Of a stretch of 64,000 bases of DNA, positions 33,242 to 33,662 are shown piece after piece. A model generated the notes under the pieces. That model made no database searches. It saw nothing but the letters and a program-made list of their open reading frames with translations, and had not been told where the DNA came from. The DNA comes from Escherichia phage cardinal. How positions within the stretch are numbered: the first letter of the stretch is position 1; each line of letters starts with the position of its first letter. Location: the sequence record PQ567651.1; one strand, written 5' to 3'. Both the position numbers and the translations under genes were made by a program.

Positions 33242-33662
33242 TGTTTATCTCCTTAGTTGAGTTAGGACTTTATGTTCTCTACTCTACATACAGATAGATC
33301 TAAAGTCAATAGATATTTATTATTTAATTTATTATTTAATTAATAATAAAATTAATAAAGAATCTATTGTTAGTATAGAGTATGTATGTTAGTATTATAG
33401 ACATAACATAGTGCTATATGTAGACTACTCAGTTGTCTGTTAGATCATGTATCACAAGATTAGATAACACCCCCTCGCTGCGCTCGGCGTTTTTCGGGGG
33501 TTAGGGTAGCATACTTTTTTGCGTTTGTCAACACCTTTTTGGATTATTTTTAAGTACAACCTAAACCTCCTAAAAACGATTGTAACGAGTTTTACTGTGA
33601 GGTAAGGTGATTGCATATCTTAAAGGCTATTAGCTCGTTACAGAGCCGTACAGGAGGGAATA
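33242..33662. repeat. AT-rich divergent intergenic region with short direct repeats, a GC-rich hairpin and a 9-bp inverted repeat
   Basis: Tandem TTATTATTTAATT-like repeats at 33310-33360, TAGTAT/TATGTA repeats at 33370-33420, hairpin CCCCCTCGCTGCGCTCGGCGTTTTTCGGGGG at 33470-33500, and inverted repeat TGTAACGAG...CTCGTTACA at 33589-33643. Confidence 0.5.
33281..33309 (-). promoter_or_regulatory. sigma70-like promoter TTGACT-N17-TAGAGT for the prs/nadV operon
   Basis: Minus strand TTGACTttagatctatctgtatgTAGAGT, then about 40-nt leader, AGGAGA and ATG at 33241. Confidence 0.45.

Follow-up and report, generated by a model that had tools for sequence, protein, structure and literature searches.

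Between prs, on the minus strand, and a homologue of phi92 gp106A, on the plus strand, Escherichia phage cardinal (sequence record PQ567651.1) carries a 421-nt gap free of open reading frames (ORFs), at positions 33242-33662 of the 64,000-nt stretch that was analyzed and is here called the window. We classify this gap as an ordinary divergent promoter region with a promoter-proximal cis-acting hairpin and see no distinct origin element in it. Conserved sigma-70-type promoters point out of it in both directions, with an AT tract between their mirrored -35 hexamers, in line with the divergent control region proposed in the initial annotation, and a further leftward promoter, PL2, is coupled to a hairpin in a module that recurs elsewhere in the genome. 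We read the gap as a compound promoter region for the host RNA polymerase (sigma-70), in which the PL2 hairpin acts at the RNA level, and we hold this reading with moderate confidence.

The promoter-hairpin module consists of two features:

33503-33531, minus strand: PL2, the distal leftward extended -10 promoter (-35 TTGACA at 33531-33526, TG at 33511-33510, -10 TACCCT at 33508-33503)

33460-33498, minus strand: PL2 leader hairpin, with the apex CC-GA-GC[GCA]GC-GA-GG at 33488-33472 (covariance model 43 bits, E 4e-14)

PL2 reads TTGACA-N14-TGC-TACCCT, combining a perfect -35, a 17-nt spacer, the extended -10 TG, and a TAnnnT hexamer, and this zero-mismatch match occurs a single time in the window. 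By its motifs it is a putative sigma-70 extended -10 promoter, at which the holoenzyme is predicted to initiate, with the start placed at 33496/33495. About 12-16 variable nt 3' of the -10 lies an invariant 13-mer, CGAGCG-N(N)-AGCGAG, here CGAGCGCAGCGAG at 33486-33474 on the minus strand. For phylogenetic footprinting, the gap was aligned to Citrobacter phage Tr1, three Klebsiella phages, and an IMG/VR contig, in which prs is only 62-64% identical, and then to six metagenomic lineages. No stretch of the gap is better conserved than the module, which spans ~60-70 nt of the minus strand and adjoins neither gene; its core is near-invariant in Tr1, the Klebsiella phages, and the IMG/VR contig despite the divergence of prs, and the PL2 hexamers are invariant across lineages, whereas the spacer varies. 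The 31-nt GC-rich hairpin noticed earlier does exist, with CCCCC at 33470-33474 and GGGGG at 33496-33500, and it overlaps the PL2 leader hairpin. It had been taken as an isolated feature, whereas it is part of this conserved, repeated module.

Whole-genome comparisons were made on EmilieFrey (MZ501063), a complete and near-identical phage of 146.7 kb with four transcription blocks:

Block A: prs-nadV-tRNAs-structural genes

Block B: replication genes

Block C: ~100 tiny genes with many inter-gene gaps, at 72.9-103.3 kb of EmilieFrey, outside the window

Block D: nucleotide metabolism and RNA repair

Exactly three copies of the module are present in EmilieFrey (covariance model E 7e-11 to 6e-15), none further appearing up to E=10, and the IMG/VR relative has a second copy 71 kb away. 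In metagenomes, a scan for a pattern of GCTACCCTAA and the 13-mer alone gave 38 loci. Pooled over all scans, the phage-type copies sort into three orthologous types, the positions of types B and C being those of the 50001-100000 segment of EmilieFrey MZ501063:

Type A: the locus described here, where it heads the prs block

Type B, 20874-20818: between co-directional genes of block B, with a small membrane-protein gene 110 nt downstream

Type C, 49500-49446: in an intergenic gap in block C

All 32 phage-type copies have a TT[G/T]AC[T/A] hexamer 17-18 nt upstream and a TG before the -10, and neither the -35 hexamer nor the TG was part of the pattern by which these copies were retrieved. With the type B copy as query, BLAST located the module in 134 GenBank phages, comprising Justusliebigvirus, Phapecoctavirus, and Klebsiella and other relatives. 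Together, the copies point to three modules per genome across the subfamily Stephanstirmvirinae. Type C is antisense to its neighbors in every lineage examined and is followed by a UUUCAUG...CAUGAAA hairpin. The ORFs annotated as bas61_0091 and bas61_0171 coincide in part with modules and are unlikely to be genuine. As the 12-15-mer was found in no relevant context in literature searches and the module reaches no Rfam family above threshold, the promoter-hairpin module is apparently undescribed so far.

A host origin of the module was rejected, as a search of 5,426 E. coli genomes gave no similar sequence; matches in bacterial genome contigs are either phage-like contigs in metagenome-assembled genomes (MAGs) or an unrelated bacterial palindrome. 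Divergent copies with GTAA and GAAA loops occur in MAG contigs (one of them at 5335-5369 of a 505-kb contig from a Scandinavium sp. MAG) that are otherwise dissimilar to known phages in their DNA, so the range of the module exceeds the sequenced Stephanstirmvirinae. Separately, the apex CCGAGCG[A/T/C]AGCGAGG caps an abundant palindromic repeat, GTCATYCCGAGCGAAGCGAGGRATC, in GC-rich bacterial contigs, where it often forms inverted pairs resembling miniature inverted-repeat transposable elements. Its occurrence in this bacterial repeat suggests that the apex is a reusable, very stable structural unit.

The 13-mer can fold as C-G, G.A, A.G, G-C, and C-G around a GNA or GNNA loop. Among 27 distinct copies, the apex CC-GA-GC[GNA/GNNA]GC-GA-GG is invariant, tandem G.A is present in 27/27, and the 13-mer varies solely at the loop N positions. 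The loops seen over all copies are GAA, GCA (source phage), GATA, GAAA, and GTAA. The stem flanks have different sequences in different types with pairing retained; the pair adjoining the 13-mer, for instance, is C-G in 19 copies and A-U in 5 and is unpaired in 3. Overall, 71% of cells are paired, compared with 61.6 +/- 1.5% in shuffles (0/500 shuffles as high), and the covariation score is 0.268 versus 0.125 in shuffles (0/500), with slid registers all scoring lower. We regard this covariation as evidence of moderate strength. The pairing is also strand specific, with 38 G.U versus 11 A.C pairs (34 versus 2 without the outermost pair), and RNAalifold gives -5.4 kcal/mol for the sense strand of the promoter versus -1.7 for the antisense strand.

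In types A and B, the stem starts ~7-9 nt past the -10 hexamer, which is where transcription is expected to start, ~0-3 nt from the predicted 5' end. The type B leader contains a second hairpin on the sense strand with compensatory changes and several G.U pairs; the whole leader folds into 20 pairs at -20.4 kcal/mol, of which six, including five in the second hairpin, show compensatory changes. Because of these compensatory pairs, RNA from these promoters appears to be under structural selection. On the 3' side of the type A hairpin, RNAalifold found no conserved RNA structure of larger size. With strand-specific pairing and compensatory changes, the element would classify as a structured cis-acting RNA hairpin in the generic sense, with an apex that itself never varies.

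The remaining promoters of the gap and the tract between them are as follows:

33281-33309, minus strand: PL1, the proximal leftward sigma-70-type promoter from a consensus scan (-35 TTGACT at 33309-33304, 17-nt spacer, -10 TAGAGT at 33286-33281)

about 33310-33366 (~57 nt), no strand: pure A+T tract (100% A+T) between two back-to-back mirrored -35 hexamers, in the position of an UP element

33367-33395, plus strand: PR2, the candidate rightward promoter (-35 TTGTTA at 33367-33372, 17-nt spacer, TG at 33387-33388, -10 TAGTAT at 33390-33395)

Across 10 lineages, the footprint contains four conserved parts: PL1, a short AT core, a rightward promoter-like site, and palindrome arms. The expected minus-strand prs promoter is found as PL1, the hexamers of which are conserved in position in 9-10/10 lineages (TTGAC with a TAnnCT-type -10 at 17-nt spacing) around a variable spacer sequence. 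Its predicted start at ~33273-33274 would give prs a leader of ~32 nt. On the rightward side, a 9-bp direct repeat, TGTTAGTAT, present twice, forms the -35 and -10 regions of PR2, and Tr1 repeats the layout as TTGTAA-N17(..TGT)-TAGTAT, while other lineages have a TTGACA or TTGATT promoter-like site nearby. We infer from these matches that PR2 is a rightward promoter with a predicted start at ~33402; its match is weaker than those of PL1 and PL2.

The tract between PL1 and PR2 is the core of an imperfect palindrome, 33296-33382 (fold z -4.5 and -2.8). As the palindrome arms, CAATAGAT and ATCTATTG, extend into the two -35 regions and reach both hexamers, the AT palindrome appears to be the mirror symmetry of back-to-back promoters. 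Only TTAATTAA is conserved in all 10 lineages, and it is expanded here to the 57-nt pure-AT tract. Bidirectional promoters with AT-rich UP elements have been predicted at the strand-switch points of rV5-like phages (PMC3606486). The source phage resembles rV5 in its four transcription blocks, its promoters at divergence points, its extended -10 promoters, and its changes of skew with orientation. It differs in a third promoter, directed back across the pair and followed by a conserved leader hairpin, an element that is not described for rV5.

Two independent assemblies break at the AT tract. The ALITA record (GenBank PP359570) begins and ends at about 33334 and 33368, within or beside it, and an IMG/VR contig ends at about 33289, just to its left, where it is joined to a Nextera adapter. 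A physical genome end at this point was rejected, as the other GenBank records listed run through the gap and one break bears the sequencing adapter; both breaks are probably low-complexity or coverage artifacts.

In the mechanism that we propose, PL1 would start the prs-nadV-tRNA unit leftward and PR2 the nucleotide-metabolism and RNA-repair block rightward, and the AT tract between the mirrored -35 hexamers may raise promoter strength or bend DNA. PL2, a strong-looking promoter inside the rightward leader, would fire leftward through PR2 and PL1, and the first ~35 nt of its predicted transcript would fold into a hairpin with an invariant apex and a co-varying lower stem. Situated at the nascent 5' end, this hairpin would mark the transcripts from three strong sigma-70-type promoters, and it could shield the 5' end against decay that depends on RppH and RNase E, act like nut or put by binding a factor of the phage or the host, or do both. 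Transcripts of types A and C would additionally be antisense to rightward RNA. Most likely, then, the hairpin acts in nascent RNA as a stabilizer or factor-binding site. Its copy number, conservation, strand specificity, and covariation, like the promoter signatures, are direct observations; the start sites, the RNA-level action, and a partner that would bind the hairpin are what we infer from them.

Two known kinds of RNA element come close to such a role. Bacterial and phage mRNAs can have 5'-terminal stabilizing stem-loops, such as that of the E. coli ompA leader, and the module hairpin of types A and B is similarly placed, starting only about 0-3 nt from the predicted 5' end. For ompA-type stabilizers, stability suffices, whereas 13-15 apex nt are invariant here across genera and paralogous copies. 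The lambda nut sites, with boxA, boxB, and the N protein, and HK022 put are promoter-proximal RNA hairpins that modify RNA polymerase. Like them, the module offers short, G...A-closed, purine-loop hairpins just 3' of strong phage promoters; each genome has only a few, they stand where long transcription units begin, and they are sequence and strand specific. In contrast to the 5-bp stem and GNRA-like pentaloop of lambda boxB, the module apex combines a 2-bp stem and tandem G.A pairs with a loop of the GNA or GNNA type, and no boxA (CGCTCTTA-like) is visible in any of the 32 module copies. Nor was an N-like protein identified. From PL2 to the end of nadV there is no terminator-like site; on the minus strand, such a site first comes at ~28.9 kb and a strong one at ~26.8 kb, and these positions lend no support either way to a need for antitermination. 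A lambda-type nut site was therefore rejected, boxA being missing and the apex architecture different.

In a permissive Rfam scan of the gap, the best match was GA-cis (RF02987), at 21.3 bits against a gathering threshold of 34.7 (E 0.044). The 3' hairpin of GA-cis, CCGAgcGaAagcGAgGG, nearly equals the module apex, but only this hairpin matches, and the 5' half can be aligned only by allowing an insertion of 61 nt. Membership in GA-cis was rejected, the score being below threshold and 14 other module loci being without a match.

Several observations weigh against an RNA-level role or against parts of the promoter assignment. The PR2 match is weak, and the rightward promoter is sited elsewhere in other lineages. 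Type C has no co-oriented downstream gene in any lineage, so a simple mRNA-leader role fails to cover all copies. The shuffle controls for covariation are inflated by shared ancestry, and the type A copies alone are nearly invariant. The CCCCC arm of the 31-nt hairpin is mostly upstream of the predicted PL2 start, and a transcript folded from the predicted +1 shows no unusual stability (z +0.98) under nearest-neighbor rules, which give no score to sheared G.A pairs or GNA loops. Searches of the literature on phi92 and phAPEC8-type phages gave no transcript ends for the group, so every start site is a prediction. Finally, the apex matches the DNA mini-hairpin motif of Hirao, with GCGCAGC here and GCGAAGC, GCGATAGC, GCGAAAGC, and GCGTAAGC in other copies. 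That rule, GCGNAGC or GCGNNAGC with a G...A-closed loop, describes extraordinarily stable DNA hairpins with melting temperatures of 70-76.5 C, and r(GCGAAAGC) melts at 39 C versus 76.5 C for its DNA (PMC13037366). All loops seen obey it, and GAUA is not a GNRA loop. As the loop repertoire fits the DNA rule and the RNA versions are much weaker, this point favors a role at the DNA level.

One possible addition to RNA-level action, which we put forward tentatively, is that PL2 is mainly an antisense or interfering promoter. Its hairpin-stabilized RNA would pair with the rightward 5' leader, as type C RNA would with the RNAs of tiny genes, and converging polymerases would collide and damp or time rightward expression. 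Face-to-face promoters with polymerase collisions are known from pR and pL of coliphage 186. PL2 does face PR2, with a predicted transcript overlap of ~93 nt, and PL2 and rightward promoters converge in all lineages. In 7/10 lineages the ribosome-binding site (RBS) of the rightward gene lies 10-12 nt from the PL2 -35, so that the rightward leader would cross PL2 and PL2 RNA would be antisense to it; the orientation of type C in every lineage agrees. The co-directional type B, with its structured sense leader and RBS, does not fit, and simple pairing needs no invariant apex. This explanation overlaps the one that we prefer and is compatible with it.

A role at the DNA level can be framed as a transcription-primed origin, which we think unlikely. 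Here, host RNA polymerase would start at a PL2-type promoter, TTGAC-N17-TACCCT, and the transcript would form an R-loop, the displaced strand of which would fold into a d(GC-GNA-GC) mini-hairpin and lock it open, giving three origins per genome of a class new for phages. The mini-hairpin, with its tandem G.A, would hinder re-annealing and the binding of single-stranded DNA-binding protein or would recruit primase/helicase; the purine-rich RNA would prime the leading strand, with phage primase/helicase and polymerase taking over; and the AT tract 136-186 nt downstream of type A would be an unwinding or transition zone. Every loop variant obeying the DNA rule speaks for this, as do the strand-specific placement of the hairpin on the non-template strand and the reach of the palindrome upstream of the expected start in several copies. 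The antisense setting of type C is odd for an mRNA promoter, an AT tract does follow the type A copy, and a fused primase/helicase, which we take to be gp4-like, is encoded, no annotated product being an origin-binding initiator.

DNA mini-hairpins are found at the primase (complementary-strand) origins of G4, St-1, and alpha3, in RSF1010 ssiA, and at N4 virion RNA polymerase promoters (PMC13037366). The module resembles these in being tied to initiation sites and in following the sequence rule exactly, including the variable positions (GAA, GCA, GATA, GAAA, and GTAA). Known mini-hairpins work with single-stranded DNA or virion RNA polymerase, whereas those described here are coupled at a fixed distance to a sigma-70-type promoter, and no RNA polymerase is among the annotated gene products of EmilieFrey. 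At the T7 primary origin, T4 oriF and oriG, and ColE1, a promoter is followed by an AT-rich or unwinding zone and the transcript serves as primer. Type A alone is similar, having a strong promoter with the pure-AT tract 136-186 nt downstream and no annotated initiator; types B and C are without such a tract. In type C, the lowest GC content over 40 nt is 20-30% in seven lineages; downstream of type B come a structured leader and, by about 110 nt, a gene. The G.U-rich stems and the compensatory changes of the type B leader point to RNA folding, and GC skew carries no origin signal independent of transcription. The directions of the copies leave about 40 kb without a co-oriented leading strand, and the single G cluster is unlike a typical R-loop initiation zone. 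If this explanation were true, the earlier guess of an origin would be right for a different reason.

It is very improbable that the GC hairpin serves as an intrinsic terminator or as an operator in double-stranded form. On the plus strand, an inner stem of CGCTG/CGGCG is followed by TTTTT, and the region is palindromic. However, the T run is missing from Tr1, the Klebsiella phages, and the IMG/VR relative despite the conserved core, which led us to reject a terminator, and there is no upstream plus-strand gene to terminate. As for an operator, the 13-mer is not a Watson-Crick palindrome, and the conserved G.A mismatches together with the G.U pairs are a sign that a single strand is folded; the antisense strand, moreover, folds poorly. 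A small-RNA gene was also rejected, as no module copy is followed by a U-tract terminator.

The initial annotation had suggested that clustered direct repeats resembling iterons, or a DNA-unwinding element, make the gap a candidate replication origin. What was seen as a cluster is a single 12-nt unit, ATTTATTATTTA, repeated 2.2 times at 33315-33341 inside the AT tract, and phi92 lacks one copy of it. This points to a recent tandem duplication and not an iteron array; no such array (at least three conserved direct repeats, typically 17-22 bp) is present in the gap, the sole other direct repeat of which is that of PR2. One GenBank record annotates an unnamed 26-nt repeat in the tract. The A+T content of 33310-33366 is indeed that expected of an unwinding element, but it is not diagnostic in a tract lying between two -35 hexamers. 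No DnaA box (TTWTNCACA) occurs within 33242-33662, the nearest being at 31879 and 34755, and there is no adjacent initiator gene, the flanks being prs and the gp106A homologue.

GC skew, proposed as a check, does change sign at the gap, yet this is one of four flips in the genome, each at a coding-strand switch. In EmilieFrey, the two plus-strand blocks have skews of +0.09 to +0.13 and the two minus-strand blocks -0.15 to -0.17. As the skew flips at all four strand switches, it tracks transcription. In rV5, changes in GC skew likewise coincide with transcription orientation (PMC3606486). No computable feature marks this locus as an origin, and an origin in the gap is not supported. An iteron-type origin in the AT tract is thus scarcely credible: a ~57-nt pure-AT tract with a significantly folding palindrome does sit at the switch of coding strand and skew, but its repeat is of low copy and poorly conserved, DnaA boxes are missing, the skew flips elsewhere as well, and true multi-copy repeat arrays sit in other non-coding regions.

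Two such arrays lie in block C, again in positions of the 50001-100000 segment of EmilieFrey MZ501063. One, at 27834-28054, has three units of 67-79 nt, and the other, at 39725-39776, has 3.2 copies of the 16-nt unit TAAYCATTTCATRYAG; both are non-coding, and the local GC skew collapses there. These arrays are better iteron or origin candidates than 33242-33662. In the same segment, at least seven Fur-box-like palindromes (TGATAATCATTATCA and variants) occur at 28077-28143, 39357-39434, 40300-40319, and 40494-40513, clustering in two large non-coding stretches of block C. They may represent iron-regulated promoters or Fur titration.

The rightward leader contains two further features:

33422-33438, no strand: 17-bp near-perfect palindrome, AGACTACTCAGTTGTCT, about 20-37 nt 3' of the predicted PR2 start

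33579-33644, plus strand: lineage-specific hairpin in the 5' untranslated region (5'-UTR), with an 11-bp stem that includes a 9-bp perfect inverted repeat and with an inner stem-loop

The palindrome is kept as AGAC-N9-GTCT in the source phage, in Tr1, and in several metagenomic lineages, and it looks like an operator or a small hairpin. A regulator with multiple operators was rejected, as the palindrome is unique and the genome lacks a second good copy. The 9-bp inverted repeat reported earlier is perfect and near the first plus-strand gene, as stated, but its arms (33581-33589 and 33634-33642) are separated by 44 nt, not 35. By a rough estimate, ~0.1 such repeats are expected per region by chance, and the 74 nt around it have a fold z of -2.55 on the plus strand versus -0.96 on the minus strand. 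The hairpin stops 7 nt before the RBS AGGAGG (33652-33657) of the first rightward gene. Its segment is missing from Tr1, the Klebsiella phages, and the IMG/VR relative, that is, from all other lineages compared, which is consistent with a lineage-specific 5'-UTR structure.

The genes flanking the gap are as follows:

32348-33241, minus strand: prs (ribose-phosphate pyrophosphokinase), first gene of the leftward block, equivalent to phi92 gp107 (Pfam Pribosyltran, Pribosyl_synth, and Pribosyltran_N)

33253-33249, minus strand: prs RBS, AGGAG

33663-34031, plus strand: phi92 gp106A homologue, 122 aa, first gene of the rightward block, with its ATG at 33663

The gp106A homologue has no match in a Pfam search and belongs to PHROG 14390, a family without assigned function. 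Over 1.3 kb around the gap, the source phage is 97-98.7% identical to 55 GenBank phage records, all Justusliebigvirus (phi92, alia, EmilieFrey, and others), and is itself a Justusliebigvirus (phi92-like) myophage of E. coli in the subfamily Stephanstirmvirinae. The gap measures 409 nt instead of 421 nt in many close relatives, and GenBank records give it no regulatory annotation beyond ribosome-binding sites. It is the only large non-coding gap within the window, as first described; genome-wide, EmilieFrey has larger ones at about 77.7-79.0 and 89.4-90.9 kb.

The suggestion of a master early regulatory region does not hold, since the block that looks early is block C, not the genes flanking the gap, and many further sigma-70-like promoters lie in the prs-nadV-tRNA unit. 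On the minus strand of 22000-33000, which holds this unit, these promoters include a perfect TTGACA-17-TATAAT at 24118-24090 and a TTGACA-17-(TG)TATAGT at 29463-29435, and a good terminator lies 3' of the tRNA cluster, at 26814-26796. Rfam at gathering thresholds finds 14 tRNAs in the whole window and nothing else. In phi92 (FR775895.2, 49736-49886), a 151-nt "hypothetical tRNA" is annotated inside the nicotinamide phosphoribosyltransferase gene; it is probably an annotation artifact, because Rfam gives no tRNA at the equivalent window position. In the rightward block, a 113-aa protein (35289-35627, plus strand) matches Pfam cREC_REC, a cyclic-phosphate processing receiver (E 2e-14). In this block, the phosphoesterase, RNA ligase, and polynucleotide kinase genes follow about 0.5-2.7 kb downstream of its gene, and all of these together look like an RNA-repair cluster.

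The analysis removes a tempting false lead, in that the skew flip and AT repeats do not indicate an origin here. The phage genus is well sampled, and the region itself is an ordinary divergent promoter region; what it adds is the promoter-hairpin module, which is conserved more strictly than the neighboring proteins and present three times per genome in a subfamily with E. coli and Klebsiella phages that are candidates for therapy. The module could be a nut- or put-like mark, an RNA stabilizer, or an antisense switch, or, less likely, a replication start. Its hairpin apex could serve phage engineering as a small stabilizing or recognition tag, and the module as a whole is a testable handle on how transcription is organized in phages of 145-150 kb.

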